64,000 nt of DNA from contig DBXM01000051.1 in NCBI GenBank assembly GCA_002309655.1, forward strand, positions 2,856-66,855, read 5' to 3'. Below, one piece after another: positions 1 to 46,800 of this stretch. Position 1 is the first letter of the stretch. Every line of letters begins with the position of its first letter. Made by a program: the position numbers and the translations under genes. The DNA is from Mageeibacillus sp. UBA1212 (GTDB lineage: Bacteria > Bacillota > Clostridia > UBA1212). The notes below the pieces were generated by a model. The model had not been told where the DNA came from and did not search any database. It saw nothing but the letters and a program-made list of their open reading frames with translations.

Positions 1-601
1 GGTACAACAGCATGCCCTCGAAAATGAGCACCAGCCCCATTCCGCCGCTGTCGACAACGCCGGCCTCCTTAAGGCAAGGAAGCAGCTCGGGCGTGTTGAC
101 AAGGGAAACCTTGAGGCGGGAAACGTACATCCCGAGCAGCGTCTCGAACGAACAGTTGCGCGGAAGCTGAGGTCTGATGAACTCAATGCCCTCCCTCGCG
201 ACCGTCAGAATGGTGCCCTCTTTCGGCGACCTGCAGCCCGCGTAGGCCTGCCTGTAGGCGTGAACCAGCGCCGCCGCCATCGAAGCCGCCGACATAGTCT
301 CGTACCTTCTGAGACTGCGCGCGAAGCCGTCGAAGAAATTCGACACGATAACGCCCGAATTTCCGCGCGCGTTAATAATCATTCCGTCCGCCATCGCGCG
401 AAGATACGCGTTGAGCTTCTGCTGCCCCTCCGCGTCGCTTATGCCGTGCTGAACGGTCAGTCTCATGTTCGTGCCGGTGTCCCCGTCGGGAACCGGGAAA
501 ACGTTCAGGTCGTTGACCTTCTGTTCGTTCTCGCTTATTTTCCGTAGCGCGCCGCGCATCATTTTCGAGAACGCGGTGCCGTCAATGCGATATGTTGCCA
601 T
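1..601 (-). CDS. fakA: Fatty acid kinase subunit A (DAK2-domain protein, YloV-like), N-terminal part. ATG at 601; the C-terminus runs past the window start.
   Basis: Minus-strand translation from 601 gives MATYRIDGTAFSKMMRGALRKISENEQKVNDLNVFPVPDGDTGTNM..., the DAK2 signature VFPVPDGDTGTNM. It lies directly downstream of a DegV gene, as FakA does with FakB. Confidence 0.7.
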   Translation of the reverse strand, partial: MATYRIDGTAFSKMMRGALRKISENEQKVNDLNVFPVPDGDTGTNMRLTVQHGISDAEGQQKLNAYLRAMADGMIINARGNSGVIVSNFFDGFARSLRRYETMSAASMAAALVHAYRQAYAGCRSPKEGTILTVAREGIEFIRPQLPRNCSFETLLGMYVSRLKVSLVNTPELLPCLKEAGVVDSGGMGLVLIFEGMLLY

Positions 602-650
602 CTGTTACCCTGATTCTTAAAGTCTCTGTAAGATTGTCCCGGTTTAAACT

Positions 651-1574
651 TCAGTTCCCGAGGCGTGCAAAAATCTCGCCCTCTTCCTTGAGGTCGTCGG
701 AAATCTTCTTGCCGGTGTAGTAGCAGGCCATGATTCCGGGGCCCGAGTTGGAGCCGCTGCTTCTGAAAATGTCGGTGTAGTAAATCTCCTTCGGGTTAAA
801 GCGTTCCTTAATCATCGCCAGGAACTTCTCGGCCTGGGGCCTTCTCGCGGAGCTCGCGACTATCATGACCTGGTTCTCGGGGTCGATCGCGGTCTCGCCG
901 ATGTAGTCCAGAAGGATCCTGTAGGCGCTCTTCTCGCCCTTGATCTTGGTGAGAACGGTGGTCATGCCGTCCTTCGAAAAATCGCCGCAGGGCTTGATTC
1001 CGATAAGGGTTCCCATGAACGCCTTCGAGTTCGAAATTCTGCCTTTTTTAGCGGAAAACTGAAGGTCGTCGTGCCAGCCGGCCTGGTGGATCGACCACTT
1101 GATTTCCTCGCAGTACGCGAACGTTTCCTCAACGCCGAGACCCTCTTCGCGCTTGACCGCAGCAAGAACCGCGAGCAGACCGCCGCCGGTCGCAAACTTG
1201 CGCGAATCGACGACGAGAATCTTGACGTCCGGATACTTCTCTTTCAGATCGTCTCTCGCGTTGCAGGCGATGTCGTAGGTGCAGCTCATTTTCGAGCTCA
1301 TGCAGAAATAGAGGACGTCCTCGCCTTTCGCGGCGTGCTCCTCAAATACGGCTGTAACTTCCGGAAGCGTCGGCGGCGCCGTCTTGTAGCCCTCGGGGTT
1401 CTTTTTAAGCTTCGCGTAGAACTCCTCGCAGGTCTCCACGTCCCACTCCATCTTGGAGACGATCTCCTGACCGTCGGGATACGTTACGTGACCCTGAATA
1501 TATTCGATTCCGAATCTCTCCCTGATCTCTGCCGAGAGATCGCACGTGATGTCGATAACAATCTTAAAACTCAT
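651..1574 (-). CDS. DegV-family fatty-acid-binding protein (FakB-like).
   Basis: 307 aa. N-terminal IVIDITCDL and overall DegV fold signature. Adjacent to fakA. Confidence 0.8.
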   Translation of the reverse strand: MSFKIVIDITCDLSAEIRERFGIEYIQGHVTYPDGQEIVSKMEWDVETCEEFYAKLKKNPEGYKTAPPTLPEVTAVFEEHAAKGEDVLYFCMSSKMSCTYDIACNARDDLKEKYPDVKILVVDSRKFATGGGLLAVLAAVKREEGLGVEETFAYCEEIKWSIHQAGWHDDLQFSAKKGRISNSKAFMGTLIGIKPCGDFSKDGMTTVLTKIKGEKSAYRILLDYIGETAIDPENQVMIVASSARRPQAEKFLAMIKERFNPKEIYYTDIFRSSGSNSGPGIMACYYTGKKISDDLKEEGEIFARLGN

Positions 1575-1596
1575 TTCAAAACCTCACTTCATTAGT

Positions 1597-2532
1597 TTAT
1601 AAATCCTCATTCCCGAGTATCTTTCTTATCGCGCTCTCCACTTTTTCCGGGTCCGCGATAAACGCCTCAGCGTGCCCCGCTCCGTCCACCACAACGAGGT
1701 CCTTCTTTTCAGACGCGAGCGCCTTTAAATGCTCCTCCGACGCCGCGACGGGAACGACCACGTCCGCCCCTCCGTGAATGAAAAGCGCCGGAACCGTGCA
1801 CTTCGCGAGCTTTTCGTTAATTTGCTCCTTCCCGGTGTCGAACCCGCCGAAAAGGATTCCCGAAAACCTCGACACCTCGGCGAGCAGCCGGCCGAACGCC
1901 CCGATTTTGTGCATTCCGTTCTTGATGGTATCGCAGCCGGTTCTGTAGCCGCACTCGAGGGCCATGAACTTCACCTCGGGGTACTCCGCGAGCCTGTCGG
2001 CTGCAAGACAAATCGTGGCGGCGCCCATCGATACGCCGAAGAGCGCCACTTCCTTTCCGCCGGTTCTTGCGCGAAGCCAGTCGAGCCAGCTAAGAAGGTC
2101 GTTCTTCTCGCGGGTTCCGAAGGAAATGATCCTGCCGCCGCTGTCGAAGTGGGCTCGCTGCGACACGAGAAGCACGTTGTAGCCGAGGTTGCGGAACACC
2201 TTAAAAGCCGCGTGAACGTTGTTAAAAGGCGTCGCCCTGTAGCCGTGGAGCGCGATAACGGTCTTTTCGTTCCCGAAATCGTAGTACCTCGCGCCGAGGG
2301 TCAGTCCGTCGTAGGATTTGATCCTGACCGGCTCGTAGGGAATCGATTTGATCTCTTTCAGCGTGGCGAGCAGCCTGTCCGCGTAGGGGGCGTAGTGCGT
2401 TTCCGAAAGATTTAGCGATTCGAGCGGAATCTCCTTCCCGCGGTGGTACGTTCTGAAAAAAGCAAAAATGATCAGACCCGCAAGAGGCGCCACAAGAAGC
2501 ACCGCAGCCGCGATAATCCAGTACATTTTCAC
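1597..2532 (-). CDS. Membrane-anchored alpha/beta hydrolase (esterase/lipase/thioesterase-like).
   Basis: N-terminal TM helix and GVSMGA nucleophile-elbow motif. Alpha/beta hydrolase length and late-H pattern. Confidence 0.6.
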   Translation of the reverse strand: MKMYWIIAAAVLLVAPLAGLIIFAFFRTYHRGKEIPLESLNLSETHYAPYADRLLATLKEIKSIPYEPVRIKSYDGLTLGARYYDFGNEKTVIALHGYRATPFNNVHAAFKVFRNLGYNVLLVSQRAHFDSGGRIISFGTREKNDLLSWLDWLRARTGGKEVALFGVSMGAATICLAADRLAEYPEVKFMALECGYRTGCDTIKNGMHKIGAFGRLLAEVSRFSGILFGGFDTGKEQINEKLAKCTVPALFIHGGADVVVPVAASEEHLKALASEKKDLVVVDGAGHAEAFIADPEKVESAIRKILGNEDL

Positions 2533-2608
2533 TCCTTTCCGCCGCCGGCAAACTCAAACCGGGCGGCACGTTCACGCGCTCAAAGAAGATTTCAGCGCTT
2601 CCCCGCTT

Positions 2609-2866
2609 TCAGTTTTTCTGCGCGTTTTCGATGTAGCTGACCACGTCGCCGAGCGTCTTAAAATCGCCCATGCCGACGTTGTCGAAGCTGACGCCGAATT
2701 CGTTCTCGATAATAATAATCATGTAGATCATGCCGACCGAAGACAGCCCGAAATAGTCGGTAAGGCCTGATTCCTCGGTGCCCTTCATGATCCTCTCGCT
2801 GTCGCCCGGATTCTGGTAGATCAGTATTTCCTTAAGCTTGGCGGCAATTTCCTCACGCGTTCGCAT
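2609..2866 (-). CDS. Acyl carrier protein-like (phosphopantetheine-binding).
   Basis: 85 aa, acidic 4-helix carrier pattern with a conserved Ser in DYFGLSSVGM. Sits between an AMP-ligase and a hydrolase. Confidence 0.6.
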   Translation of the reverse strand: MRTREEIAAKLKEILIYQNPGDSERIMKGTEESGLTDYFGLSSVGMIYMIIIIENEFGVSFDNVGMGDFKTLGDVVSYIENAQKN

Positions 2867-2881
2867 AATTGAACCTCCGGA

Positions 2882-4402
2882 TCAGGCAAACTTGTTGTAT
2901 CTCTTGATCTTCATCGCGGGCGTGCGCTCGAAGTCCTCGGTGCGGATCGTGATTCTCTGGGGGCGCTGGTACGCGGGAAGCGACTCGGTGACTGTAGATA
3001 CTGCCTCAAGAAGCTTCGCCTTCGCGGTCTCTGCGTCGAACATGGCCAGCTCGGTCTTTCTGGGAACGATCTCCAGGTGCAGGAAGTGCGGTCCGTCACC
3101 GTCGGCGTCTTCGAAGAGCTGGCAGTCCTGAACGTAGCTCAGTTCGTCGTAGCGGGCCTCGACCTCGGCGGGCGAGACGTTCTCGCCGTTGGAAAGAACG
3201 ATGATCTCCTTGGTTCTGCCGGTGATATAAAGGTAGCCGTCCTCGTCGATTCTTGCAAGGTCGCCTGTCTTGAACCAGCCGTCCTCCGAGAACGCGATTT
3301 TGTTCTCCTCCGGTGCGCCGACGTAGCCCTTCATGATATTGACGCCCTTGAGCCACAGCTCGCCGTCAACCAGCTTGAGCTCCTGTCCGGGGTAAGGAAT
3401 GCCGACGGACTCGGGCTTCAGTAAGGGGGTCGGGTTGCCGGACACCAGGTTGGCGGACTCGGTAAGGCCGTATCCGGGGTAGATCGTAACGCCGAGCTTG
3501 CCGCACTCCTGAATGAGATAAGGCGGAACCCATGCCGCGCCGCAGATAATATACTCGATGGTGCCGAACATGTTCTTCTTAAAGAGACGCGAAAGACCCA
3601 GCGCCATTTCCACCAGCGCGGGAACGGTCACGAGAACGTTCGGCCTGTAGGCGCCGATGTCGGCGAAGAGGTCCTTGTTGTTGCGGCAGATGCAGAGCGT
3701 GCTGCCGGTGTAGACGCTGCACATGAGGTTCCTGACGAGTCCGAAAACGTGGGACAGCGGCAGGCAGAGGATGTATCTCCTGTAGAAAACGTCCTTCAGG
3801 CTGTAGCAGCCGAAAACCGTGCCGGCGATCATATTTCTGTGGCTGAGAAGCGCGCCCTTGCTGCGGCCGGTGGTGCCGCCCGTGAACATGATAACGCAGT
3901 CGTCGTCGGGCTCAACGTCCGGATCGTAATCCGTCTCCTCGCCCTCGCCGCTTGCAAGAAGCTTGACGAATCCGGGTTTTCTCGCCTCCGCGACAGCCAG
4001 TTTCTCCTCGAGACCGGCGCCGGAAACGATGCCCTTGAGCCCGAACATCATCGAGACGCCGAAGATCGTTCCCGGGTCAAGCTGGACAGGCAGCACCGCG
4101 ACGGTGACGCCCATTCCAGAGAGCGCGAAAAACGCCTTCAAAAAGTCGGCCGAATTCGGAAGAAGTATTCCCACGCGGTCGCCCTTCACGATGCCGTTGG
4201 CGGCACAGTAGCCTCTGAACTTCCTAACAAGAACGTTCAGCTGCGAATATGTCAGAACGTTCTCCTTGTCCTCGACTGCGTTCCTGTCGCCGTAGGAAAC
4301 GGCCGCCTCCCACATCTCGCCCACCGATTTATAGTAAACGAGACGCGAAAAAGTTTCGCTGTCGGTGTAACGTGCGAAATAGCTGATGTCTTTTGCCTTC
4401 AT
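2882..4402 (-). CDS. AMP-binding acyl-activating enzyme (long-chain acyl-CoA/acyl-ACP synthetase family).
   Basis: TGGTTGRSKGA P-loop-like AMP-binding motif, YGLTE, GWFKTGDL and PAMKIKR C-terminal motifs. Confidence 0.75.
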   Translation of the reverse strand: MKAKDISYFARYTDSETFSRLVYYKSVGEMWEAAVSYGDRNAVEDKENVLTYSQLNVLVRKFRGYCAANGIVKGDRVGILLPNSADFLKAFFALSGMGVTVAVLPVQLDPGTIFGVSMMFGLKGIVSGAGLEEKLAVAEARKPGFVKLLASGEGEETDYDPDVEPDDDCVIMFTGGTTGRSKGALLSHRNMIAGTVFGCYSLKDVFYRRYILCLPLSHVFGLVRNLMCSVYTGSTLCICRNNKDLFADIGAYRPNVLVTVPALVEMALGLSRLFKKNMFGTIEYIICGAAWVPPYLIQECGKLGVTIYPGYGLTESANLVSGNPTPLLKPESVGIPYPGQELKLVDGELWLKGVNIMKGYVGAPEENKIAFSEDGWFKTGDLARIDEDGYLYITGRTKEIIVLSNGENVSPAEVEARYDELSYVQDCQLFEDADGDGPHFLHLEIVPRKTELAMFDAETAKAKLLEAVSTVTESLPAYQRPQRITIRTEDFERTPAMKIKRYNKFA

Positions 4403-4529
4403 AGTACCCTCCGCTGATTAAATTAGTTGCCCGTGCGCGCGCGACGTTTTGAGTGAGCGGCATAATGTGCCGCCGCGGCCGCTTGTGAGCGCGGGAATGT
4501 TGTCTGTATATTAAGAATTACTGCGCCCT

Positions 4530-5294
4530 TTATTGCGCGCCGTTTCCGCCGCCGTCCGTTTCAGAGGTCTCATAAGGAACGCCCTCGACAAGCGACTTTA
4601 AGTAGTTTTCCTTCTCGCCGAGCATTCTCGCGACCTCCTCGATGCGGTCCATCGTGGGCATGTTCCCGAGAAGCGCCTTCACGTCCACGGGCTCGCCGAT
4701 TGCGATCCTCAGACGGTCGAAAATCTTCTGCTTACTGCGCACGTAAACAGGCCAGACAGGCACGCCGCTCTGATACGCCATCAGAACCATGCCTGACTTT
4801 AAATTATCCACCATCGGCGACTTTTTTTCAAGTTCTTTTTTTGCGCCGCCCTGCTCTTTTCCCTGCTTCTGCCCGCCTTCCGAGCCTTCGGGAACGCTGT
4901 CCCCGCCGCAGCCGCAGCCTTCCTTGCCGCGCACGACGTGCCCCTCGGGAAAAATCACGCACAGGTCGCCCTTTTTCAGATGGCCGGTGATTTCCTTAAA
5001 CGAGCTCATTCCGAAGTTCTCGCGGTCGATGGGAATGGTCAGAAACTGCGTGAACATCCAGCGCCTGAAAGGGGTGCTGTAGAGCTCCTTCGCGCACACG
5101 TAGTGATGGCGGCGGTACCAGATGCAGAGCATAAGATACATGGGGTCGGCCATCGAGTTGTGGTTGCTGATCATCAGAGCGCCGCCCCTGACCTTTTTCT
5201 TCGCGTTTTCGTTTTCGTAATACTTTTTCGGCCAGTACCAGAGCAGCGCCGGGCAAGCCGTAAAATGTACAAAGTCGTAAATGAATGTGCCCAT
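4530..5294 (-). CDS. PlsC-family lysophospholipid/glycerolipid acyltransferase.
   Basis: HxxxxD motif (ISNHNSMADP) and FPEG motif. Internal Gly/Cys-rich low-complexity insert. Confidence 0.7.
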   Translation of the reverse strand: MGTFIYDFVHFTACPALLWYWPKKYYENENAKKKVRGGALMISNHNSMADPMYLMLCIWYRRHHYVCAKELYSTPFRRWMFTQFLTIPIDRENFGMSSFKEITGHLKKGDLCVIFPEGHVVRGKEGCGCGGDSVPEGSEGGQKQGKEQGGAKKELEKKSPMVDNLKSGMVLMAYQSGVPVWPVYVRSKQKIFDRLRIAIGEPVDVKALLGNMPTMDRIEEVARMLGEKENYLKSLVEGVPYETSETDGGGNGAQ

Positions 5295-5366
5295 AAGGCA
5301 TCCGCCTTTCTTTCCGCCGCCAATGCGTTCTAAGCGATTTTAAACGCGTTTGCGGGCATTCTTGTT

Positions 5367-6008
5367 TCAGGAGCGTAATTTCTCCTCCGTGGCCTCGCCG
5401 AGCCTTATAACGGCCTCTCTGAGCTTCTCAGAGCAAACCGCGAGGTTTTCGCGCTCGGAAACGTCCGGATCGTAATAATCAAAGAGGTCAATGGGCTTCC
5501 CGACGGTCACGTGGGGCCGCTTGAAAACCTTGAAATACCTGCCGTCAGTGTAGACGGGAATGACCGGGACGTTCATCGCGAGAGCTATATACGCTGCGCT
5601 TGGTTTGAACTCCAGCGGCCTTTCTTCGTCTTTCAGCGGCAGCCGCGACTCCGGAAAAATACCGAGCACGCCTCCCCTGTCGAGAATATCCTCCGACTTC
5701 GGCACGAAGCCGAAATCCTTCGCGTCCCTGTCGACGTACACCGCCCCGAGCATCTTAAGCAGCCTTGCGAGCCCTTTTTTCTCATAGAGGACCTCCGCGG
5801 TCTGGAACCTGACCGTCCTCCGGAAAAAGACGAACAGAAGCTGCACGTAGTCGAAAATCGACGTGTGGTTGCAGACGATCACCGCGGGGCCTTTCAGGTA
5901 CGCGTTTTTCGTTTCTTTGTCCTCGTAGAAGACCTTCGCCCTGAAAAGAAGGAGCGCGCCGGGCCAGCCGGTCAGCTTGGCGAACCAGTTAAATAGAACG
6001 TACCTCAC
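5367..6008 (-). CDS. PlsC-family acyltransferase (second copy).
   Basis: CNHTSIFD (HxxxxD) and IFPESR motifs. The start overlaps the upstream AMP-ligase stop by 4 nt. Confidence 0.65.
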   Translation of the reverse strand: MRYVLFNWFAKLTGWPGALLLFRAKVFYEDKETKNAYLKGPAVIVCNHTSIFDYVQLLFVFFRRTVRFQTAEVLYEKKGLARLLKMLGAVYVDRDAKDFGFVPKSEDILDRGGVLGIFPESRLPLKDEERPLEFKPSAAYIALAMNVPVIPVYTDGRYFKVFKRPHVTVGKPIDLFDYYDPDVSERENLAVCSEKLREAVIRLGEATEEKLRS

Positions 6009-8005
6009 AGCCCCGCCTCCTTCATAAACGCCGCGAGCCCTTCCGCGGTAGTCAGGCCTGCTCCGTCACTGCCGGCCGGGAAGCCGCACCCGAACTCTTT
6101 GTCGAGGTCGGAAACGAGCTGAAAGTAGTCGAGCGAAGTGCCGCCGAGGTCGCGGAAGAAATCGCTGTCCGGATTTACGTTTTCGGGGTCCGCTCCGGTG
6201 GCGTCGCACATGAATTGTATTATATTTTTTACGAGTGCGTCGGGAATTTCTCCGGTCTTACCGGCTTCTTCGCCGCCTTCGCCTTCATTTTTGTATTTCC
6301 AGGAAATATCCTCAATTCCGCCGCTCTCGAGAAGCTTCCTGATCTTCGTTCGCGAGACCTTGAAGTCGCCGTCGGCAATAAGCTTTTTATCCGTGATTAT
6401 GAACTCGGATATCCTGCCGCGGAGGTTTGACGCGGCGGCGGCCTTTTCAAGCCTTGCTTTGAGCGCCGCCGCTTCCCCTGTTCCCGAAAACCTTTTCACC
6501 TCGGCAACGAGGACCGCGCCGGCGCCCTTTTTAACAAGGCAGACCGCTTCGGCGCCGGCGTCCTTGAAAACCTTTTCAGCTTCGTCAGGGTTGATGTTCT
6601 CGCCGTCGGCAAGCACGATAAGGTCGTCGTTCCTGCCGAGGATCTTGTAGTAGCCGTTCTCCTCCGAAGCCAGGTCGCCGGTCGCGAAGTAGCCGTCCGC
6701 CTCGCGCCTCACGCCGTTTTCGATGATATATTTGGCGTTGACCTTGCCCCTTACCGACAGCATGCCGTTCCCGTCCAGCGAGAACTCCACGCCGCCCAGG
6801 GGTCTGCCCACCGCCCCTTTTACAATGTCTTTGACGCGGTTCCTGAGCTCGACGCTTGTGATTCCGGTCTCGGTCATGCCGTAGCCGTTCACGAGCCTGT
6901 AGCCGATCAGGTTGAAGAACCGCAGCGCCTCGCCGGAAATCGGCCCGCCGCCGCTTATCATGAAGCTGATGCTGTCGCCGAACATCCCTCTGCGAATCTC
7001 TCCGAAAGCCGCCTTCGAAAACGCCCTGCCGAGCGCGTTCCCGGCAACCGGCAACGCGTAGATTTTTTCCGCGAGCTTCATTCCCTTTTCGAACTTCGCG
7101 ACCGTCGCCGGCCCCCGCGATTTAATCTTTTTCATCGCCGCGCCGTACACTTTTTCCCAGAACAGCGGCACCGCAAAAATGTGGGTCACGTGCCTGCGCC
7201 TGACCGTCTGCGTGACCGTGTCGGCCGCGAGGTCGTTCAGCAGCACGAACGTTCTGGAATAGAACGCGAACCATATATAGACCGCGACGAGTCCGAAAAT
7301 GTGGTAGAACGGCAGGAACGTCAAATGCTTCAGCTCGCCCCTGTAATGCCTCGCCAGCAGCCGGTTTTGCTTGATAATCTCGAACGAATACTTGATCTGG
7401 CAGTAGAGCTCCTCCGCACCGAAGGCGCAGATTTTGACGCCGGAAGTCGTCCCCGAAGTCATCAAAAGAATCTCACCGCCGCATGCGCGCAGGTCCGGTT
7501 CGGGAATCTCATTAACCGCGCACGCTTCTTCGTAAATGCTCTCCGCAGAATAAGCGGGAAGCCCGCACACCGATCCGCCGCAGCATAATTTACCGTCAGC
7601 AATAACCGCCGCCGCGCCGCACATTTCGCACGCGCTTTTAAGCGTCTCCTCCGCAAGCATAAGGTTCATCAGAAGAGGCCGCCTGCCGCACAGAATGACC
7701 GCCCAGAACATCTCGATCCACAGAAGGCTGTTCGCCATGTAAATGCCCACCGGCGCGTCCTCCGGCAGGTCCGCGAACTTCCCGCGCATTAACCGGGCGG
7801 TTTTGAGAATGTCGTTTTTTGCCTCTTTATAGGTTGTTTTCTCGACCTTCAGCCCTCTCATGCGCTCAATAAGAATGTTCTCCTCTTCCGAGAACATCAG
7901 CTCAAAAAGTGAGCCGAGATCCTTTTCCATAGAGGAGAACCGCGCGAGTTTGCCTGAGACGTATTCGTTTACCGACTTTGCGTCGCCGAGATTTTTTATC
8001 CTCAT
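6005..8005 (-). CDS. AMP-binding acyl-activating enzyme fused to a C-terminal carrier-protein (PP-binding) domain.
   Basis: MTSGTTSGVK, GYGMTE and YFATGDL motifs. The C-terminal ~80 aa carry FFRDLGGTSLDYFQLV (carrier-protein Ser motif). Paralogous to the 31882..33651 product. Confidence 0.75.
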   Translation of the reverse strand: MRIKNLGDAKSVNEYVSGKLARFSSMEKDLGSLFELMFSEEENILIERMRGLKVEKTTYKEAKNDILKTARLMRGKFADLPEDAPVGIYMANSLLWIEMFWAVILCGRRPLLMNLMLAEETLKSACEMCGAAAVIADGKLCCGGSVCGLPAYSAESIYEEACAVNEIPEPDLRACGGEILLMTSGTTSGVKICAFGAEELYCQIKYSFEIIKQNRLLARHYRGELKHLTFLPFYHIFGLVAVYIWFAFYSRTFVLLNDLAADTVTQTVRRRHVTHIFAVPLFWEKVYGAAMKKIKSRGPATVAKFEKGMKLAEKIYALPVAGNALGRAFSKAAFGEIRRGMFGDSISFMISGGGPISGEALRFFNLIGYRLVNGYGMTETGITSVELRNRVKDIVKGAVGRPLGGVEFSLDGNGMLSVRGKVNAKYIIENGVRREADGYFATGDLASEENGYYKILGRNDDLIVLADGENINPDEAEKVFKDAGAEAVCLVKKGAGAVLVAEVKRFSGTGEAAALKARLEKAAAASNLRGRISEFIITDKKLIADGDFKVSRTKIRKLLESGGIEDISWKYKNEGEGGEEAGKTGEIPDALVKNIIQFMCDATGADPENVNPDSDFFRDLGGTSLDYFQLVSDLDKEFGCGFPAGSDGAGLTTAEGLAAFMKEAGL

Positions 8006-8061
8006 CTGTGCATCAACTCTCCCGAACAGGGGGAAATCAATTAAATACCTGCGGGTCTGAA

Positions 8062-8976
8062 TTATTCGCCGCCCGCTTTTTTCTTTTCGAATATGCTCTC
8101 CGCAGCGTAAAGCGTGTTCCTGAGAAGCATCGTGATCGTCATCGGTCCGACGCCGCCGGGAACGGGAGTGATCGCGCCGCAGACCGGGAATACCGACTCG
8201 AAGTCGCAGTCGCCGCAGAGCTTCCCGTTTTCGTCGCGGTTCATGCCCACGTCGATAACGACGGCGCCCGGCTTGATAAACGAGGCGTCGATCATTTTCG
8301 CCCTGCCGACGGCCGCCACAAGAATGTCCGCGTTCCGCGCGATCTCCTTAAGGCCGACCGTTTTGGAGTGGGCTGTGGTGACGGTTCCGTCCGCGGCGAG
8401 AAGAAGCATTGAAACCGGCTTCCCGACGATGTTGCTTCTGCCTATAACAAGGCAGTTTTTGCCGCGCACCGAAGTTCCGGTCGCCGCAATCAGCTCCATA
8501 ATTCCCGCAGGCGTGCAGGGAAGAAAACCGGGGTCGCCGCAGCAGAGACGGCCGACGTTCACCGGATGGAAGCAGTCCACGTCCTTTTCGGGCGAGATCG
8601 CGTTGATGATCTTTTTCTCGTCGATGCCGCGCGGAAGCGGAAGCTGCACGAGAATTCCGTCGATATTCGCGTCGACGTTGAGCCCGCCTATAAGCGAAAG
8701 CAGTTCCTCTTCGGAAACGTCCGCGGGAAGCGCGAACTCCAGCGATGTGAAGCCGACCTCCGCGCAAGCGTTTTTCTTGTTCCGCACGTAGATCTTCGAA
8801 GCGGGGTCGTCGCCCGCGATAACAACGGCGAGCGCCGGCTTCCTGCCGGATTTTTCCTCAAACGCAAGCGCCTGTTCGCGAACAACCGTTCTGATCCTTG
8901 CCGACACGGCCTTCCCGTTGATTATTTTCCCCGAAAACTCCGGCGCTGCCGCAGCCTCATTTAAAACGTCAGTCAT
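8062..8976 (-). CDS. folD: Bifunctional methylenetetrahydrofolate dehydrogenase/cyclohydrolase.
   Basis: Conserved FolD blocks: PALAVVIAGDDPASKIYVRNK, ILVQLPLP, TPAGIMELI and NCLVIGRSNIVGKP. Confidence 0.85.
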   Translation of the reverse strand: MTDVLNEAAAAPEFSGKIINGKAVSARIRTVVREQALAFEEKSGRKPALAVVIAGDDPASKIYVRNKKNACAEVGFTSLEFALPADVSEEELLSLIGGLNVDANIDGILVQLPLPRGIDEKKIINAISPEKDVDCFHPVNVGRLCCGDPGFLPCTPAGIMELIAATGTSVRGKNCLVIGRSNIVGKPVSMLLLAADGTVTTAHSKTVGLKEIARNADILVAAVGRAKMIDASFIKPGAVVIDVGMNRDENGKLCGDCDFESVFPVCGAITPVPGGVGPMTITMLLRNTLYAAESIFEKKKAGGE

Positions 8977-13075: not shown

Positions 13076-14332
13076 TTACGGCAGCACAAACTCGTAACCC
13101 TGCGACCTGGCGTAATCGATGAACCACCCGAGATTTGCGGTCGTAAGTTCAGACGTCGAGTGGAGGTACAATATGCACCCGGGGAAAAGCGCCGTCTTAA
13201 GGATCTCCTTCCCCTGCTCGATTGAAGGCTCTTTCGACGCGTCGTAGTCCATGTACGCGAACGTCCAGAACACCGTCTTGTACCCGAGGTACTCCGCCAG
13301 CACAATGTCGCGCTTAGAAGTCGAGCCGGACGGCGGCCTGAAATAGACCAGGTTGTAGGAATACCCGAGCTTTGCGTCAAGCCTCCGCTTGAAGTTGTTC
13401 ATCTCGTTCACGAACGTCTCGCGCGACTCGAACGGCAGCTTGATGTGCCTGTCGCCATGCGAACCGATGATGTGACCTTCGTTCACGATTCTCGGCACGA
13501 ACCTTCCTGACGAGGTCCATATGAACCCGCCTGTCAGGAAGAAGATCGCCTTCACGTTCTTGGCTTTGAGCGTGTTGAGAACGGTATCCATCGTGCCATC
13601 GTCGTAGCCGGCCGTGAACGTTAAACAAATCTTTTTCTCGGTGCTCGTTGGCAGTCTGTCAAAAGAATTATGCTGCGCGATGAAGCCAAGCGACTCCTGA
13701 CCGCGGTCCCATATTGCGACCCTCTGCCCGTTTTGATACGTGAACCTGCCGCACGACCACTCGGCAGAACTGGGATTTGTATCGGCGAAAAACTCGCTCG
13801 AAAGCCCGTTCAGCACCGAAAAGTCGAATTCGCTCGGCTCAATGATCTGCGCACCGCCACCCGGAACAGCCGTCCTCAAAGTGCCGGGAACCGGCGTCGG
13901 CGTTGGCGTCGGCGTAGGTGTGGGCGTAGGAGTAGGTGTGGGCGTAGGAGTCGAGGTTGGCGTCGGCGTGGGAGTCGGCGTAGGTGTAGGTGTAGGCGTT
14001 GGAGTGGAGGTTGGCGTCGGCGTCGGAGTAGGCGTCTCCGTGGGCGTGGGCGTCGGCGTCGGTTCCGGAGTCGGAACTTCGGTCGGCTCGGGCGTCTCCT
14101 CTATAAAAGGCGTTTCAGTCGCGTCCGTTTTATCCGTATCCGCCGCAAGAACGTCGCCCTTCTGCCTTTGCGGGTCGTTCTCCCTTCCCGTAGCATCCGC
14201 GCTGTCCGCCCTGAAAGTTCCTGATACAATCATGAACACAACAACGGCAACGGCAGCAGCAGCCCCCGCCGCCGACAATATTGATTTGAGCCGGTTCAAA
14301 CCGTTCTCCATAAATCTCCTCCGCTCAGTCAC
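13076..14332 (-). CDS. Membrane-anchored polysaccharide deacetylase (NodB-homology, PdaA-like) with a (TP)n linker.
   Basis: N-terminal TM, about 40-residue TPTPTP linker and NodB motifs ([25 protein letters not shown]). Confidence 0.7.
13880..14070 (-). repeat. Coding hexanucleotide-type repeat (GGNGTNGG-like tracts) encoding the (TP)n linker.
   Basis: Runs of ggcgtcggcgtaggtgtgggcgtagg on the plus strand. A similar tract recurs at 16262-16345 and 60085-60185. Confidence 0.7.
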
Positions 14333-15453: not shown

Positions 15454-16683
15454 TTAGTGGTCGATGCGGCGGATTTCATAACCCTCCGCGCGGATATAAT
15501 CGATCAAATCGCCCAGCACCGTTGCGTTCGTTGACGAGACAGCGTGCAGCAGGTATACGCAGCCGGGGTGCAGCGTATCCTTCATTTTCTGCAGCGACGC
15601 AGCAGGTTCAGGCTGGGCAGTTGGCTCGTAGTCGCCGTAGGCGAACGACCAGAATACCGAGTAGTATCCGAGGTAGCTTGCGAGCGCAAGGTCTCTCGGG
15701 CAGCTGGCGCCCTGGGGCGGCCTGAAGAAAAGCATTGTAAAGTCGTCGCCGAGAACCTTCTTGAGCTTCCTGTAGACGGAGTTGAGCTCCTCCACAAATT
15801 CCTCGTTGGAGAGCGTCGGCATGACCTTGTGGTGTTCCGTGTGAGAGCCGATAAGGTGCCCTTCGGCGAGCATGCGCTTCATAATGGGAAGAGTCTTGCT
15901 GCCCTCGTCGACGAAGCCGCCGGTCACGAAGAAGATCGCCTGAACGTTCTTAGCCTTAAGGGTGTCGAGAATCTTCTCGGTGTTGCCGTTTTCATATCCG
16001 CAGTCGAAGGTCAGATAGCAGACCTTCTGATCGGTGTTCTTGCGGTAGATGCCGCCGTAGTTTCTGAGGTAGTTGAGCGTGCTCTGGTAGCGGTCCCAGG
16101 GATAGGTGACGTTGCCGTTGGCGTCGCGTTTGACGGCGCCCGGATACCAGTCGAAGCTTCCGTCGGAGCAGTCCTCGAACGCGGTTCTGGGAATGTCATC
16201 CAGGAACGAGAAGTCGATATCGGCGGGGTCAATGATTCTCGCTGCGACGTCGTCGATTCCGTGAGGCGTTGTAGGATTTGAAGCCGTGGGAGCCGGTGTG
16301 GGGGTAGGCGTCGGAGTCGGCGTCGGCGTGGGAGTCGGCGTCGGCGTAGGGGTAGGCGTGGAAGTCGTGCTTCCCGTCTCCGGAGGAACGTCAGTCGCCG
16401 GATTTACGTCGGGAGTAGTTTCCCCGGGAACGGCGGTTTCGTCGCCCTGAGGCAGCGGAGTGGCTTCCGCGGATTCGGTATTGTCCGCCGGAGCTTCTGT
16501 CGGGGTGGCAATCGCCACGTCGTCTGTTGGCGACGGGTTGTTCCTGTTCTTGCCGGTTTTAACCAGCGCCGCGATTTCGACGCCGATAAAGATGGCAAGA
16601 ATGAGGATGATTATGATCATAAAAGTCGACTTTTTGTTGCCGCTGAATTTTGAACCTTTAACGTTTTTATCATTTGCATTCAT
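15454..16683 (-). CDS. Membrane-anchored polysaccharide deacetylase (second PdaA-like paralogue) with a (TP)n linker.
   Basis: N-terminal TM, TPTPTP linker, NodB motifs (CYLTFDCGYENG, HLIGSHTEHH, RPPQG). Confidence 0.7.
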   Translation of the reverse strand: MNANDKNVKGSKFSGNKKSTFMIIIILILAIFIGVEIAALVKTGKNRNNPSPTDDVAIATPTEAPADNTESAEATPLPQGDETAVPGETTPDVNPATDVPPETGSTTSTPTPTPTPTPTPTPTPTPTPTPAPTASNPTTPHGIDDVAARIIDPADIDFSFLDDIPRTAFEDCSDGSFDWYPGAVKRDANGNVTYPWDRYQSTLNYLRNYGGIYRKNTDQKVCYLTFDCGYENGNTEKILDTLKAKNVQAIFFVTGGFVDEGSKTLPIMKRMLAEGHLIGSHTEHHKVMPTLSNEEFVEELNSVYRKLKKVLGDDFTMLFFRPPQGASCPRDLALASYLGYYSVFWSFAYGDYEPTAQPEPAASLQKMKDTLHPGCVYLLHAVSSTNATVLGDLIDYIRAEGYEIRRIDH

Positions 16684-31881: not shown

Positions 31882-33651
31882 TTATTTCAGTTTTTCGATC
31901 TTGACGTACTTGGAAAGTCCGCTGCCGTCCTCGACCTCGCGCTTGATCACCACGCGGCGGATCTTGATGCCGTTGGAGAGCGGCAGGTCCTCCTTGGTGA
32001 TCAGGCAGTAGTTGAGTTTCTTGTAGACGGGAAGCTCCGCGTTCCTGGCGGCGATTTCCTTCCTGAGCTTCTCGGTGAGCTCGGGGTCGTCCACGTAGGC
32101 GGGTTCGGTCTGGCACACGATGACGATGTCCTCATAAACGCTTCCGCCGCCCTTGTTGATGCCGAGCACAGTGAACGCCTTGACGCCTTCAATGTTCAGG
32201 AACGAGTCCTCCAGTTCGTCCGGGTAGACGTTCTCGCCGGATTCGTTGACGACGACCTCCTTGAGCCTTCCCTCTATATAAAGGGCGCCCTTCTCGAGCC
32301 TTCCGATGTCGCCGGATCTGAACCAGCCGTCCTCGTCCGTGGCCGCCGGCGCGTGCTTGCCGTTTTTGAGCATGCCGCTGTGGACCGAACCGCCGCGCAT
32401 CACAAGCTCGCCCGCGGACTGATCGTTGTCGTTGAAGGGCACGATCTTGTATTCCATGGAGGCGACCGGAACGCCGACGACGCCCTGAAGCCTGTATTTG
32501 ATCTTCCTGCGCCGCTCCATGGAGGAGATGCCGACCTCGGTCATGCCGAAGCCGCACAGCGTGTAGTAGCCGATGCCGTTGATGATCTTCAGAGACTCGG
32601 GAAGCACGTGACCGCCGCCGCAGATGATGCACTGGATGTCCCTGCCCGCGAGCTCCTTAAGAACCGTTTTGTTGAAAAGCGCCTTCGCGACCGCGATACC
32701 GAAATCGGGTCCGATCCTCTGCGCGAAAATGCTCAGGTTCAGCATGAAGTTGAACATGAACTGCTTGAATTTGGACTGCTTCGAGAGCTTGCCCTTGATG
32801 CCCTTCGCGATGTTGTTGACGAGCAGCGGCACTGCGAGAATGTGGGTGACCCGGTGGTCGCGGCACGTCTGAAGGAGAACAGAAGGCGCCATTCTGTCGG
32901 GCATTACCTGCGAGGCACCGAAAAAGCTGTACCAGAGGTAGTTCGCCATGAAGCCGAAAACGTGGTTGAGCGGCAGGAAGCAGAGCATTCTCTTGTCCCT
33001 GTCGTCGCAGATGTTCTTGTCGGCTCTGATGATCGGGCCGGCGTTCATGACCTGGTTGTAGATCGCGTCGTTGTTATAGATGAAAATCTTGGCCGTGCTG
33101 GTAGTGCCGGAGGTGCAGAGCGCCACCTCGTCGCCCCAGTCGTAGGAATCGATCCGCTCGATTGCGGTCCTGGACGTTTTGTCGGCGTTGACGGCGATCT
33201 CGAGGATCTGTCTCTTGTCGAGTTTCAGAATGTCAGTCGCGGCGATCGTGACGCAGTTTTCGTACTGATGTCCGTCGTTCGTAATGATCGCGACTGCGCC
33301 GCCCTCGTCGATAAAGTACTGTGTAAGCTTTTCGTCGTGGCGCGCGTCAATAAGGAACGGGCTGAAGCCGGCCATGAGAATGCCCCAGAATATCTCGAAC
33401 CACTCCGGGCAGTTGGCGAGCTTGAAGCAGACGAAGCCCTTTTGGACGCCGTTCATTTTCTCGCGGATCTTGTCGGCGCAGTACCCGCTCACGAGTTCGA
33501 CGTCGGTGAAGCTGAGCTTTTTGATCTGTCCGTCAAGCTTGTACTCGACCGCCGGCATGTCGCCGTGGTGCGAATAGACCTTGAAAATTCCCTTGTAGGA
33601 ATGCTCGCCCTTTTCGAGCATGTCCAGGCATTCGAAACAATATTTGTCCAT
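31882..33651 (-). CDS. AMP-binding acyl-activating enzyme (third copy).
   Basis: CTSGTTSTAK, GFGMTE and WFRSGDIG motifs. Paralogous to the 6005..8005 product over its enzymatic core. Confidence 0.7.
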   Translation of the reverse strand: MDKYCFECLDMLEKGEHSYKGIFKVYSHHGDMPAVEYKLDGQIKKLSFTDVELVSGYCADKIREKMNGVQKGFVCFKLANCPEWFEIFWGILMAGFSPFLIDARHDEKLTQYFIDEGGAVAIITNDGHQYENCVTIAATDILKLDKRQILEIAVNADKTSRTAIERIDSYDWGDEVALCTSGTTSTAKIFIYNNDAIYNQVMNAGPIIRADKNICDDRDKRMLCFLPLNHVFGFMANYLWYSFFGASQVMPDRMAPSVLLQTCRDHRVTHILAVPLLVNNIAKGIKGKLSKQSKFKQFMFNFMLNLSIFAQRIGPDFGIAVAKALFNKTVLKELAGRDIQCIICGGGHVLPESLKIINGIGYYTLCGFGMTEVGISSMERRRKIKYRLQGVVGVPVASMEYKIVPFNDNDQSAGELVMRGGSVHSGMLKNGKHAPAATDEDGWFRSGDIGRLEKGALYIEGRLKEVVVNESGENVYPDELEDSFLNIEGVKAFTVLGINKGGGSVYEDIVIVCQTEPAYVDDPELTEKLRKEIAARNAELPVYKKLNYCLITKEDLPLSNGIKIRRVVIKREVEDGSGLSKYVKIEKLK

Positions 33652-43813: not shown

Positions 43814-46800
43814 TCAGTAGGATTCATCCCACCAAAAAAAAGCAGGAAAAATAAAATAGCTCAATCCATAATACCACCAAGCTCTGGCAATGACATCTGA
43901 AGACTGTCCTCTCTTGGCATTTCCAAGAATATCAGCTAGAGCCTCCCAAGGCTCTTCGTATAATCTGTATTTCCTGTCAAGTTTGCAAGAAGAAGGAATT
44001 GCGACTGTTATTAAATATGTTATAATCCCTGACATCATCAATTGCCAGTTATGACCACGCTCATGCCTAAGGTCGTTCTCATCATCTCCATCAGCTAACA
44101 GAATTATGCCAAAAGATCCTGATCTTTCGCCCTCCCCTATTCGGAATACTGGAACTCCTTTGTAAAACGACACTTTTCTTGATTTCAAAACATCGCTGAC
44201 ATCTGAATTAAACGGGTTATATTCAATCTCCTTAAGATCCGTCTTAATATCTTCATCAAAGCAAGACATAATACACATCCCAGCATATGATAAAACAGAT
44301 GCAGCAATTTGAACAGCAGACCCTCCAATTGGTGTAAAAGCCAAAAGAAGTGCAATAACCAAAATAGCATAATGACCATTAATATCTACGCAATTCACCG
44401 GATCATTCCTGCAATATGTGTAAAGATTACACCCAAGCGGGCCTTCCCCGATGTTCAGCTGTGAGTCAGCGTTAATGAATCTTCCTAAATAAGGGTCGTA
44501 ATACCGGCTCTTAAGGTAATAGAATCCTGTTTCGTTGTCGTAATAGTATCCCCTGTATCTTACCGGGTTGATGTAACCAATGCTTGTAGTGTCGGTTGTA
44601 ACGTCTACTCCGCTGCCGTTCTTGATTGAGATTAAAGAGCCCCATGTGTCGTAGGTATAGGCTGCAACTACTGCCCCAGCGCTGTTAATTATGTGCGTTA
44701 TATCGCCCTGTATGTTGCGGATGTATCGGTAATATGATGGTGCGCCGCTGTTTTGAGAATATGCAAAGCCACAAATTCTGCCCGCAGCATCATAGTCGAA
44801 AACCATCTCGTATGAGCCGTCTGCCGCCCATTCGGATTTAAGCGTATCACCCACCCAAAAGTAATTGATCCGTTTTGAAACGTTATCGTTTGAAACAAGC
44901 GTTTTTCTTGTTCTCAGTCCGTCTGCATCGTAAAGATAGCTTTGCGCATAAGCGGCTCCGTTTGGTGTTACAGTTGCAAGCTTGTTTCCCCGGCTCCAGG
45001 TCATTGCATAGCTTGTTTTCCCCATATAGGTCAACGGATTTCCGACAGTATCGTAAGAGTAATATGACCCGCCAATATATGTTGACAAGATGTCCTTGTC
45101 CGTCGCGTTATAACCGTAAATCGGGATTGAGAGTAGCGTTGCGGTCCCTAAAAGCGATGATGTGCCTATGTTGGGACTGTACGAGAATATCATTTTGGCA
45201 AGCAGATTGCCGCCGTTATCGTATGTATATCTGATAGTATAGCCGCTTCCGTTATTAAGTTTTTTATTGTCTTCACGAATTAACTGACCAAGTGCATCAT
45301 ACTCATATTTATTGGTCAAAATCCCGTTATCCGATATCGTTTTTATCTTGCCGTTATCGTAGTAAGTATATGTCAGCGCCGGAACTGATGACAGCGAGCA
45401 AGTCTCGGAGGATACGAGATATGTCTCATTGGTCAAATGGTACGTGTGACCGTTGTATACAGTATCCTTCTCCTTAACAACGTATGAATACGACTTGTTC
45501 AAAGAAGAAGAGGGGTTGTCATGAGCGAATGATGTAATTCGTCCAATGTCATCAAACGTAAGTGTTTTTGTTCCGGTAACGCCTTCTCTGACCGACATTT
45601 TGCTTGCGGCATCAGATTCAGTCCGCGAATCATACTCCCTGGTTGTAAGAGCTGTCGTAAAAAACTCTGTTTCTATATTCCCGCTTTGCCCAACGTCATA
45701 TTGATAAAAAACCTTGTTTCCGTCACTTGATAAAACGCATTTCAGTCTGCCGGTCGGATCATAGCTGTACTGTTTTGTGTTTACGCGAGCAGAATCGGAA
45801 CGGTCAACAGACTTAACCACATTTCCGTTATTGTCGTAATACCATACAAAGGTTGCATTGCTGATGTTAGCGTTTGAATCGAAAGCGACATACGTCAGGC
45901 GTCCCAAAGAATCATATCCAAAGTACTTTGTCTGACCGTTTCCATAATGAATTTCAGATAACTGTCCGAATGTTCCGCCATAGGAATAACCGGCTACGGT
46001 CCGGATACTGCTGCCATTTGCATCCAGAATCGCGAAAGACGTCATATTGCCTGCATTATTCGTCCCGAAAGAATATGAAAACCCGTTGTGTGAAATACCG
46101 GTTGAATACGGATTGTATGCTATCCCGAAAGACGAACCGCCTTCTGACTCGCCGATCAATCTGCCATATGAGTCATACGTAAAAGATGTCGCACCCCCGC
46201 TACCGTCCGTAACAGAAAGCAGATCACCCGTCGCACTTGAATATGAGTAAGTTATGTCGTTTCCCGACATATCTGTTTCTCTGTGTAAAAACCTTCCGTC
46301 AGACGTGTAGTCGTAAACTTTGTGAGAGATACAGTTGATACCTGAAAGTGTTGCCGATTCGATAATCTTACCGTGCGCGTTGTACGCATATAGGTCGTAA
46401 GTATCAACCGATAATGAACTGTTTCCGCCCGGTGCAAATGACTCATCTGTGCGAATCACCTGTGTCGGGACAAGAGTACTGTATGAATAAAATGTAGATG
46501 TTTCGTTTCCGGCAGCGTCGGTGTGGTAAACTGCCGAGATTCTGTCCGGAAGAGTATTCTCATAAGCATATTCAGTTTCCGCCCCTGAGAAACCTCTCTC
46601 AAACTGAATTCTTCCAAAACTGTCGTAAACGTACTGGCTTCTGTCTGAATAATCCCCAAAACTGTCTATATACTCTGCCGTTAAACCGCCAAAGCACACA
46701 TCAGTGTAGTTGTAGTCGTTGACAAGGCTTATCGTAACGTCGCTGCTGAACCCTTCGATTTTGATAATTACACTTACAAACTGCCATCCCTCTGTGGCGG

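Follow-up and report, generated by a model that had tools for sequence, protein, structure and literature searches.

Why should two adenylate-forming ligases, two PlsC-family acyltransferases and two acyl carriers be encoded together with the subunits of a fatty acid kinase? This question is posed by positions 1-8005 of a 64,000-nt stretch of DNA from Mageeibacillus sp. UBA1212 (contig DBXM01000051.1, positions 2,856 to 66,855; the whole stretch is called the window below). An earlier note, made from the sequence alone, described the block as a duplicated, split Aas system co-transcribed with FakA and FakB, and proposed that it forms an integrated module for activation of exogenous fatty acids and reacylation of lysolipids. 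We find that the block is a real, widespread and uncharacterised lipid operon, whose parts come from known families and whose overall purpose is a known one. On balance, it probably is a conserved unit that activates free fatty acids so that they can be esterified into membrane glycerolipids at the cytoplasmic face of the membrane.

Eight co-directional, tightly spaced genes had been described, and all eight are indeed found on the minus strand; Pfam and NCBIfam scans agreed with the domain assignments and operon-like packing given in the earlier note. The first gene, G1 (6005-8005, 666 amino acid residues), combines an AMP-binding domain (PF00501, residues 55-410, 114 bits) with a C-terminal PP-binding domain (PF00550, residues 595-645, 38 bits). 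It is followed by two genes for PlsC-family acyltransferases, G2 (5367-6008, 213 residues, PF01553 64.3 bits) and G3 (4530-5294, 254 residues, PF01553 69.1 bits), by a stand-alone adenylate-forming ligase of the acyl-CoA-synthetase type, G4 (2882-4402, 506 residues, PF00501 202 bits), and by a divergent stand-alone protein with weak matches to acyl carrier proteins (ACPs), G5 (2609-2866, 85 residues). The block continues with an alpha/beta hydrolase, G6 or H1 (1597-2526, 309 residues, Hydrolase_4 58 bits, Abhydrolase_1 41 bits), a DegV/FakB-type protein, G7 (651-1574, 307 residues, PF02645 157 bits), and the first 200 codons of FakA, G8 (1-601, Dak2 117 bits), a gene that crosses the window edge. 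The start of G6 is an ATG at 2526 behind a good ribosome-binding site; the open reading frame (ORF) list has a GTG at 2532 instead.

Intergenic distances from G1 to G8 are, in order, -4, 72, 127, 15, 82, 22 and 49 nt. The 4-nt overlap reported for the ligase-carrier gene and the acyltransferase gene behind it is present: the GTG start of G2, preceded by AAGGAGG, overlaps the stop of G1, and G2 appears to be translationally coupled to G1. Regulatory RNAs and terminators within the block were considered and dropped, because Rfam gave no family matches in the block or upstream of G1 and terminator-like sites were not more frequent in the block than in shuffled sequence, with none lying cleanly within a gap. 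Upstream of G1 on the same strand are folD, at a distance of 56 nt, and then ftsK. The region 5' of G1 (8006-8090, minus strand), which comprises this gap and the end of folD, contains a weak promoter-like site, TCGAAA-18-AATAAT (8090-8061, 9 of 12 positions matching), the sole candidate transcript start in the window lineage. Contigs assembled from the public runs SRR094437 and SRR094926 encode proteins identical to those of the window. On L001, one of these contigs, the complete FakA gene is followed by a gene for a second alpha/beta hydrolase, H2, a paralogue of G6. The transcription unit is thus at least nine genes long, longer than the window shows.

Conservation of the arrangement was analysed in 80 fetched loci, which were searched with the window proteins before their ORFs were called. 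These are the best 80 of at least 246 stretches encoding a G1 relative, taken with 10-kb flanks and with one genome per species; the number of stretches is a lower bound, since the scan of species representatives used two peptide patterns only. The loci belong to rumen and gut Clostridia labelled Ruminococcus sp., Oscillospiraceae, Lachnospiraceae, Christensenellales and others, and among them are a genome from the human gut (L034) and isolates of the R. bromii group that are in culture (L012 and L053). Two rumen isolates, Ruminococcus sp. JL13D9 (NZ_CP162392) and JE7B6 (NZ_CP162391), carry the block in complete genomes; a preprint places both near R. bromii and R. bovis.

In essentially every locus on a contig of sufficient length, the gene order is A1-T1-T2-A2-C2-[L]-H1-B-[M]-K-H2, where A1 is the ligase-carrier, T1 and T2 the acyltransferases, A2 the ligase, C2 the ACP, H1 and H2 the hydrolases, B FakB and K FakA; L and M are accessory genes discussed below. 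The median gap is 18 nt or less at every junction. Identity to the window proteins is 41-49% for A1, about 50% for T1, 35-45% for T2, about 32% for H1, and about 50% for A2, C2 and FakA. The flanks are unrelated: no upstream gene family is common to more than six loci, and only the five closest relatives have folD and ftsK next to the block. With one order and orientation shared by about 70 species-level genomes whose flanks are unrelated, synteny is strongly conserved among these Clostridia, and chance is far from sufficient to account for the arrangement. Of 75 loci, 47 have a near-consensus sigma-70 promoter in the 150 nt before A1, compared with 2 of 225 coding controls. Fixed order, short gaps, unrelated flanks and the promoter upstream of G1 together provide strong evidence for a single selected transcription unit starting at G1. 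Outside the block, no conserved neighbours were found upstream in these loci, and downstream only H2 and a small zinc-ribbon membrane protein (27 loci). The latter, a protein of about 142 residues (L010:18405-18833 and 26 other loci) whose N-terminal zinc ribbon precedes a hydrophobic C-terminal part, is encoded on the same strand after H2 and may also belong to the unit.

For G1, more than 1500 relatives were found at E-values of 1e-10 or better; among the 120 best, all but one (recorded with the AMP-binding domain only) have both domains, and most are 636-720 residues long. G1 contains the full ANL motif set, namely the P-loop, GYGxTE, TGD, the hinge and the A10 lysine. The residues invariant in 14 homologues include the P-loop SGT..K191, GYGMTE, TGD, GR.DD..(G)EN.NP, K549/R552 and Ser624, of which K549 is the A10 lysine and Ser624 sits in the carrier sequence LGGTSLD. 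Searched as a profile, the carrier part of G1 retrieved ACPs of the fatty-acid synthase (FAS) type from the PDB at E-values of 1e-10 to 1e-12 and matched E. coli AcpP with 41.8 bits. The stand-alone carrier is more divergent: as a single sequence, G5 scores 29-33 bits with NCBIfam ACP models and 17 bits with PF00550 (cut-off 20.8), all below the cut-offs. Its family profile aligns end to end with residues 3-77 of AcpP (35 bits), and at least 95% of 70 sequences have Ser43, which lies in the motif G-x-x-S-V. The phosphopantetheine serine, on which the earlier note had made its proposal depend, is thus present in both carriers, where G1 Ser624 and G5 Ser43 align with AcpP Ser36. Both are ACP-like four-helix carriers, with this serine at the head of helix II, and are predicted to be phosphopantetheinylated.

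With which acids the carriers are loaded is indicated less sharply. All core motifs of G4 are conserved in 77 sequences, the A10 lysine among them, each being either invariant or present in at least 95%. Among NCBIfam models it is closest to PRK06187, long-chain-fatty-acid--CoA ligase (212 bits, cut-off 476), and its closest solved relative is FadD13 of M. tuberculosis (3r44, 131 bits). For G1 the best family matches are MenE (92 bits) and PRK06187 (86 bits), both from NCBIfam and both under the cut-off, and its profile gave weak matches in the PDB to MenE, chlorobenzoate ligase, FadD13 and FadD10. A clustering with unrelated adenylating enzymes such as aryl-acid ligases, named earlier as the outcome that would speak against the lipid proposal, is therefore not what the best family matches of G4 suggest, although MenE and others are close.

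Both acyltransferases exceed the PF01553 cut-off of 23 bits. The motifs NHxxxxD, GxxxVxR and PExR are conserved in 79 sequences of G2, and NHxxxxDP and FPxG in 78 sequences of G3; the distal proline motif of the PlsC and lysophospholipid acyltransferase (LPLAT) family is conserved in both sets. The comparison with LPLAT families that had been suggested thus places G2 and G3 in the PlsC family by domain and motifs, but short of the cut-off of its LPAAT model: TIGR00530, the 1-acylglycerol-3-phosphate acyltransferase (LPAAT) domain, gives 56.7 bits for G2 and 60.6 bits for G3, against a cut-off of 102.95. Matches to the only solved PlsC, from T. maritima (5kym), are weak (E-values of 8e-6 for G2 and 1e-3 for G3). 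The two proteins share 24% identity and are nonetheless each other's nearest relatives, at 80-108 bits; no strong transmembrane segment was found in either. Their sequences do not appear to tell apart lysophosphatidic acid, lysophospholipids, glycerol-3-phosphate and glycolipids as acceptors. An ornithine-lipid reading was rejected, as the corresponding acyltransferase models score 16-17 bits compared with 57-61 bits for the LPAAT domain model.

G3 carries an insert of about 45 residues (residues 123-170, window positions 4785-4928) between its FPEG motif and the distal motif. The insert is rich in Gly, Glu and Lys, of low complexity and not conserved, and distant relatives with a G3 of about 200 residues are without it. 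The best promoter-like site of the region, TTGAAA-17-GATAAT (4831-4803, 10 of 12 positions), falls within this insert.

How closely does this set resemble Aas? In the annotated E. coli record, aas encodes a fused acyltransferase/acyl-ACP synthetase and adjoins lplT. The G2 profile matches the Aas acyltransferase domain with 25 bits and E. coli PlsC with 48 bits, the G3 profile with 41 and 39 bits, respectively. On the Aas ligase domain, the G4 profile scores 121 bits, comparable to its 131-bit match to FadD13, and the G1 profile 22 bits. Scores with the Aas family models are roughly an order of magnitude below the cut-offs: 15.7 bits for G2 with NF005959 (cut-off 886), 50 and 53 bits for G2 and G3 with NF006386 (cut-off 1221), and 123 bits for G4 with NF005291 (cut-off 1349). 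The one-polypeptide architecture of Aas, an N-terminal PlsC-type domain followed by a C-terminal ANL ligase domain, is not seen either, as acyltransferases and ligases are separate genes in the window. Neither module qualifies for any Aas or AasS model. What holds of the earlier comparison is that both activities occur twice as separate genes; membership in the Aas family does not. The word "duplicated" has to be given up as well: G1 and G4 share 33% identity over 151 residues only, G2 and G3 share 24%, and the two modules differ in gene order. The modules are old and divergent rather than recent duplicates. As an analogy, "split Aas, twice" fairly describes how the block may work, but not its family membership.

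The remaining genes of the unit also belong to lipid-related families. G6 and H2 retain the HG, GxSMG, Asp and His positions (67 sequences for G6), and the solved relatives of G6 are esterases and monoacylglycerol lipases. Each of the two hydrolases has one N-terminal membrane helix starting at about residue 5; no Lys or Arg precedes the helix of G6 and about three follow it in 88% of sequences (about 90% for G6 and H2 together). By the positive-inside rule the catalytic domains of both would face the cytoplasm, which makes a role as secreted lipases unlikely. G7 scores 175.6 bits with TIGR00762, above the cut-off of 99.7, and 99.9 bits with the FakB1 equivalog, under its cut-off of 350; its family is strongly conserved in 67 sequences. 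The 200-residue fragment of G8, besides its Dak2 match, scores 214 bits with the YloV subfamily and 162 bits with the FakA equivalog (cut-off 975), and the complete protein on L001 (611 residues) consists of Dak2, FakA-like_M and FakA-like_C domains. By domain content, G7 and G8 are the FakB-type and FakA subunits of fatty acid kinase. The FakA of the window lineage (L001:5667-7502) is some 60 residues longer than the 551-residue FakA of L034. The alignment of FakA from L003 (L003:17486-19327) splits in two near residue 320, which suggests an inter-domain insert.

Relatives of the window lineage carry two further genes in the block. The L gene, found in 60 of the 80 loci, encodes a PLAAT/LRAT-like protein; its LRAT domain scores 63-69 bits, and the protein matches human PLAAT3 (group XVI phospholipase A1/A2) with an E-value of about 1e-7. 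Its products fall into three size classes, of about 140 (LRAT domain alone), 283 and 345 residues. In 22 of these loci the match extends to a C-terminal part, which in L034 (344 residues; L034:14941-15975) is an Sfp-type 4'-phosphopantetheinyl transferase (PPTase). We know of no description of such a PLAAT/LRAT-PPTase fusion. The presence of a PPTase within the operon argues that the carriers truly are phosphopantetheinylated proteins, and the PLAAT-like enzyme argues for phospholipid acyl chemistry. The M gene, present in 32 loci between fakB and fakA, encodes a transporter of the MFS_2/GPH family, which may import lysolipids. A relationship to LplT or to a solved lysolipid transporter was considered and rejected, because the score with LplT was 3 bits and sequence and profile searches of the PDB gave only a weak match to a plant sucrose transporter. 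Neither gene is found in the block of the window or of its closest relatives (L003-L007), nor elsewhere in the 64 kb. PPTase, PLAAT-like enzyme and transporter all fit a lipid-salvage role of the unit.

Natural variants of the block bear on the pairing of its parts. L062 is without A2, C2 and the LRAT gene and retains T2, L065 is without A2 and the LRAT domain and retains C2 and the PPTase, and L056 and L057 are without hydrolase H1. In L074 (L074:4263-5561) T1 and T2 are read as one frame, a possible double acyltransferase of about 430 residues; this is a single case, in which a sequencing error is possible. No fusion of a ligase with an acyltransferase was found in the 80 loci, where other apparent fusions are artefacts of contig ends, and a Rosetta-stone argument from such fusions was abandoned, since the 809-residue homologue P0020 has just an N-terminal extension.

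Taken together, these parts suggest the following scheme. G1 would adenylate a fatty acid and attach it, in thioester linkage, to the ACP-like domain to which it is fused, from which G2 would move the acyl group to a glycerolipid acceptor, for example lysophosphatidic acid or a lysophospholipid. G4 would load a fatty acid onto the stand-alone carrier G5, for which G3 is the most likely acyltransferase partner. In parallel, FakB and FakA would make acyl-phosphate, the substrate of PlsY for position 1, and the cell would have three activation routes for free fatty acids, through FakAB acyl-phosphate, the G1 carrier and G5. The membrane-anchored hydrolases G6 and H2 may supply or edit the fatty acid pool through cleavage of (lyso)lipid esters. 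In most relatives the PLAAT/LRAT-like enzyme, a dedicated Sfp-type PPTase and the MFS_2 transporter would round out the set. We infer the fatty-acid substrate, the pairing of G3 with G4 and G5 and the identity of the acceptor; for the substrate, and above all for a lysolipid acceptor, it is the context that speaks. Every partner gene (FakA and FakB, the PLAAT3-like domain, the esterase- and lipase-like hydrolases) fits acyl-lipid chemistry and points to it. By analogy, further support would come from the fact that in E. coli the combination of PlsC-type acyltransferase, ANL ligase and ACP in Aas reacylates lysophospholipids. Of the integrated module first proposed, one conserved unit therefore stands, with activation of fatty acids and reacylation of lysolipids suggested by the company that its genes keep.

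Several points weigh against this scheme. No ligase reaches any curated family cut-off, and MenE, malonyl-CoA and aryl-CoA ligases score near the fatty-acid ligases, most so for G1, so that the acyl substrate of the ligases cannot be taken as established. Because G2 and G3 score under the TIGR00530 cut-off, no acceptor class can be assigned to either. A cell that has FakAB has no evident need for two acyl-carrier ligases. The pairing of T2 with A2 and C2 is not strict, since L062 keeps T2 without A2 and C2 and L065 keeps C2 without A2. Finally, MFS_2 has no detectable similarity to LplT or to solved lysolipid transporters and is absent from the window lineage. A bolder version, in which the unit performs lipid assimilation independent of AcpP and PlsX, novel for Gram-positives, would have the two ligase-charged private carriers serve two positions or acceptors, the PLAAT-PPTase move acyl chains of dietary or host phospholipids to the carriers without ATP, and salvaged chains kept from the de novo pool; we regard it as rather doubtful.

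Known systems resemble the unit in part. Like Aas with LplT, the operon combines a PlsC-family HX4D acyltransferase with an ANL ligase and an ACP carrier, a set that in E. coli is co-transcribed with a major facilitator superfamily (MFS) transporter, the flippase that provides the lysophospholipid. Unlike in Aas, the activities of the operon are encoded in separate genes and are present two times over, and in place of AcpP each set has its own carrier, fused in one case and free-standing in the other; G2 is nearer to PlsC, G1 is barely related to the Aas ligase, and the operon adds FakAB and hydrolases. The transporter of the relatives is related to LplT in fold only, and the block of the window has none. 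In the standard Gram-positive scheme, PlsX makes the acyl-ACP for PlsC from acyl-phosphate. The operon shares with this FakA/FakB-PlsX-PlsY-PlsC route a DegV/FakB protein (G7), FakA (G8) and PlsC-family enzymes that presumably act in the last step, but differs from it in that two adenylating ligases with dedicated carriers share an operon with fakAB.

The reaction proposed for the ligases, from free fatty acid and ATP to acyl-ACP, is identical to that of AasS of the Vibrio harveyi type, for which ATP-dependent loading of free fatty acids onto ACP is described (PMC12086093). In contrast to AasS, which draws on the housekeeping AcpP and is not linked to an acyltransferase, G4 is nearest to FadD13-type ligases, and among its 34 PDB matches at E-values of 1e-20 or better there is no acyl-ACP synthetase, as judged by chain names. 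A D-alanylation reading was rejected too, as there are no Dlt models among the matches of G5 or the 25 best matches of G4. AcpB of Enterococcus faecalis is loaded via PlsX from acyl-phosphate and is not known to have an adenylating ligase of its own or to be linked to extra PlsC genes. It is described as a second, non-FAS ACP devoted to exogenous fatty acids in a Firmicute (PMC6509188), a role that the carriers of the operon may share. PLAAT/LRAT-like enzymes, which are permuted NlpC/P60 acyltransferases, take acyl chains from phospholipids via a Cys thioester, and S. aureus LnsA is a bacterial acyltransferase component of the same superfamily (PMC7387801). The LRAT domain of the L gene resembles PLAAT3; the fusion to a PPTase in 22 loci, absent from the window lineage, sets it apart.

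Among the alternatives to preparation of free fatty acids for membrane glycerolipids, the strongest concerns where the acyl chains come from. In a bacterial Lands cycle, the PLAAT-like enzyme and the hydrolases would deacylate the cell's own phospholipids, FakAB and the ligase pairs would reactivate the released chains, and G2 and G3 would return them to lipid and so adjust the composition of the membrane. Such internal remodelling would explain why both hydrolases are predicted to have a cytoplasmic catalytic domain, why nothing in the block looks secreted, and why the block of the window lineage is without a transporter; FakAB of S. aureus is reported to recycle an internal pool of free fatty acids (PMC5539427). 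The MFS_2 gene between fakB and fakA in 32 relatives suggests import, however, and the hydrolase topology comes from the positive-inside rule only. As this explanation invokes the same chemistry as the scheme above and differs in the source of the acyl chains alone, we consider it a credible minority view, though unlikely to be the whole answer.

A second alternative, which we judge improbable, makes G2 and G3 the main, obligatory route to phosphatidic acid, with one ligase/carrier pair for each position of glycerol-3-phosphate, bypassing AcpP and PlsX. It would fit the core-like character of the block, which is spread over many lineages, has diverged much as housekeeping genes do, includes FakA and in most cases starts with a strong promoter, and it would fit G2 being nearer to E. 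coli PlsC than to the Aas acyltransferase domain. No plsX, plsY, acpP, fab genes or other plsC were found in the 64-kb window by Pfam scans of large ORFs and by six-frame profile scans, so that it holds no other PlsC-family gene or ACP, but 64 kb represents a minor part of the genome. Both acyltransferases also fall under the cut-off of the LPAAT domain model, and a variant without G4 and G5 exists (L062). Relatives of the R. bromii group depend on branched short-chain acids to prime their fatty acids; type II fatty-acid synthesis (FASII) would then have to be functional in them.

Less probable again is a specialised product, such as a lipoamino acid, an acylated glycolipid or a small metabolite of non-ribosomal type, made by the first five genes, with a non-fatty acid as the substrate of G1 and fakAB just sharing the acyl supply. 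Where relatives of G1 have database names, these are "AMP-binding protein" or, in favour of such a product, "non-ribosomal peptide synthetase". An AlphaFold2 model of G1 (mean confidence, pLDDT, 74.8) compared with the PDB by Foldseek had as its closest architectures the adenylation-peptidyl carrier protein (A-PCP) didomains of McyG and carboxylic acid reductase (CAR). As a guide to the substrate the model was uninformative, as the matches (McyG, CAR, MenE, FadD13) are generic for ANL and A-PCP proteins. In addition, G1 matches fatty-acid ligases no better than MenE or chlorobenzoate ligase, and the Sfp-type PPTase of relatives is typical of secondary-metabolite clusters. Against this, the block is without genes for condensation, reductase or thioesterase domains or for tailoring enzymes, the carrier of G1 is FAS-ACP-like, and the fixed gene order with FakA inside is unlike that of patchy biosynthetic clusters. 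That lipid-related genes are adjacent by mere chance is hardly credible: the 72-, 82- and 127-nt gaps could hold internal promoters, and one promoter-like site (10 of 12 positions) lies in G3, but the same order and orientation recurs with short median gaps and unrelated flanks in those roughly 70 species-level genomes, and protein identities of 41-50% exclude that the loci are assembly copies of one another.

A third ligase gene had been noted in the window at 31882-33651 (minus strand). It is real (589 residues, AMP-binding 129 bits, no carrier domain) and proved to be a paralogue of the adenylation domain of G1 (29% identity over 504 residues, E-value 8e-57), not of G4. It lies outside the operon, adjoining the unrelated housekeeping genes ybeY and phoH. 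The unusual P-loop of G1, SGTTS..K, is also found in this protein, which could load a carrier in trans, for example in relatives without G4. Elsewhere in the window, two minus-strand genes (13076-14332 and 15454-16683) encode paralogues of about 410-420 residues with an N-terminal membrane helix and a long Thr-Pro repeat linker; read by eye, the translations of their C-terminal domain show His-rich motifs resembling polysaccharide deacetylases. An ORF of 2124 residues (43814-50188, minus strand) contains RHS repeats (68 bits), which suggests a protein of the toxin-delivery type; genes for a GH123 glycoside hydrolase and an FGGY kinase lie downstream of it on the same strand.

In textbooks, Gram-positive bacteria have a single route for the use of free fatty acids, from FakAB to PlsX, PlsY and PlsC. 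A full-text literature search, with subscription journals mostly outside its coverage, found no description of this operon. According to a review, acyl-ACP and acyl-CoA synthetases are generally a Gram-negative strategy and FakAB a Gram-positive one (PMC10146087), and because of this division a Firmicute operon that unites FakAB with carrier-dedicated ligases departs from the accepted scheme. With relatives of its first gene in at least 246 stretches, the operon is widespread in rumen and gut Clostridia. It also offers a compact and testable set of proteins, including the ligase-ACP fusion with its coupled acyltransferase and the PLAAT-PPTase fusion, and cultured isolates exist. If the proposed function is true, the operon would explain lipid uptake or recycling by abundant starch- and fibre-degrading anaerobes on fat-containing diets. 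This would have consequences for rumen biohydrogenation and fatty-acid toxicity, and inhibitors aimed at FASII would be likely to fail in such bacteria.

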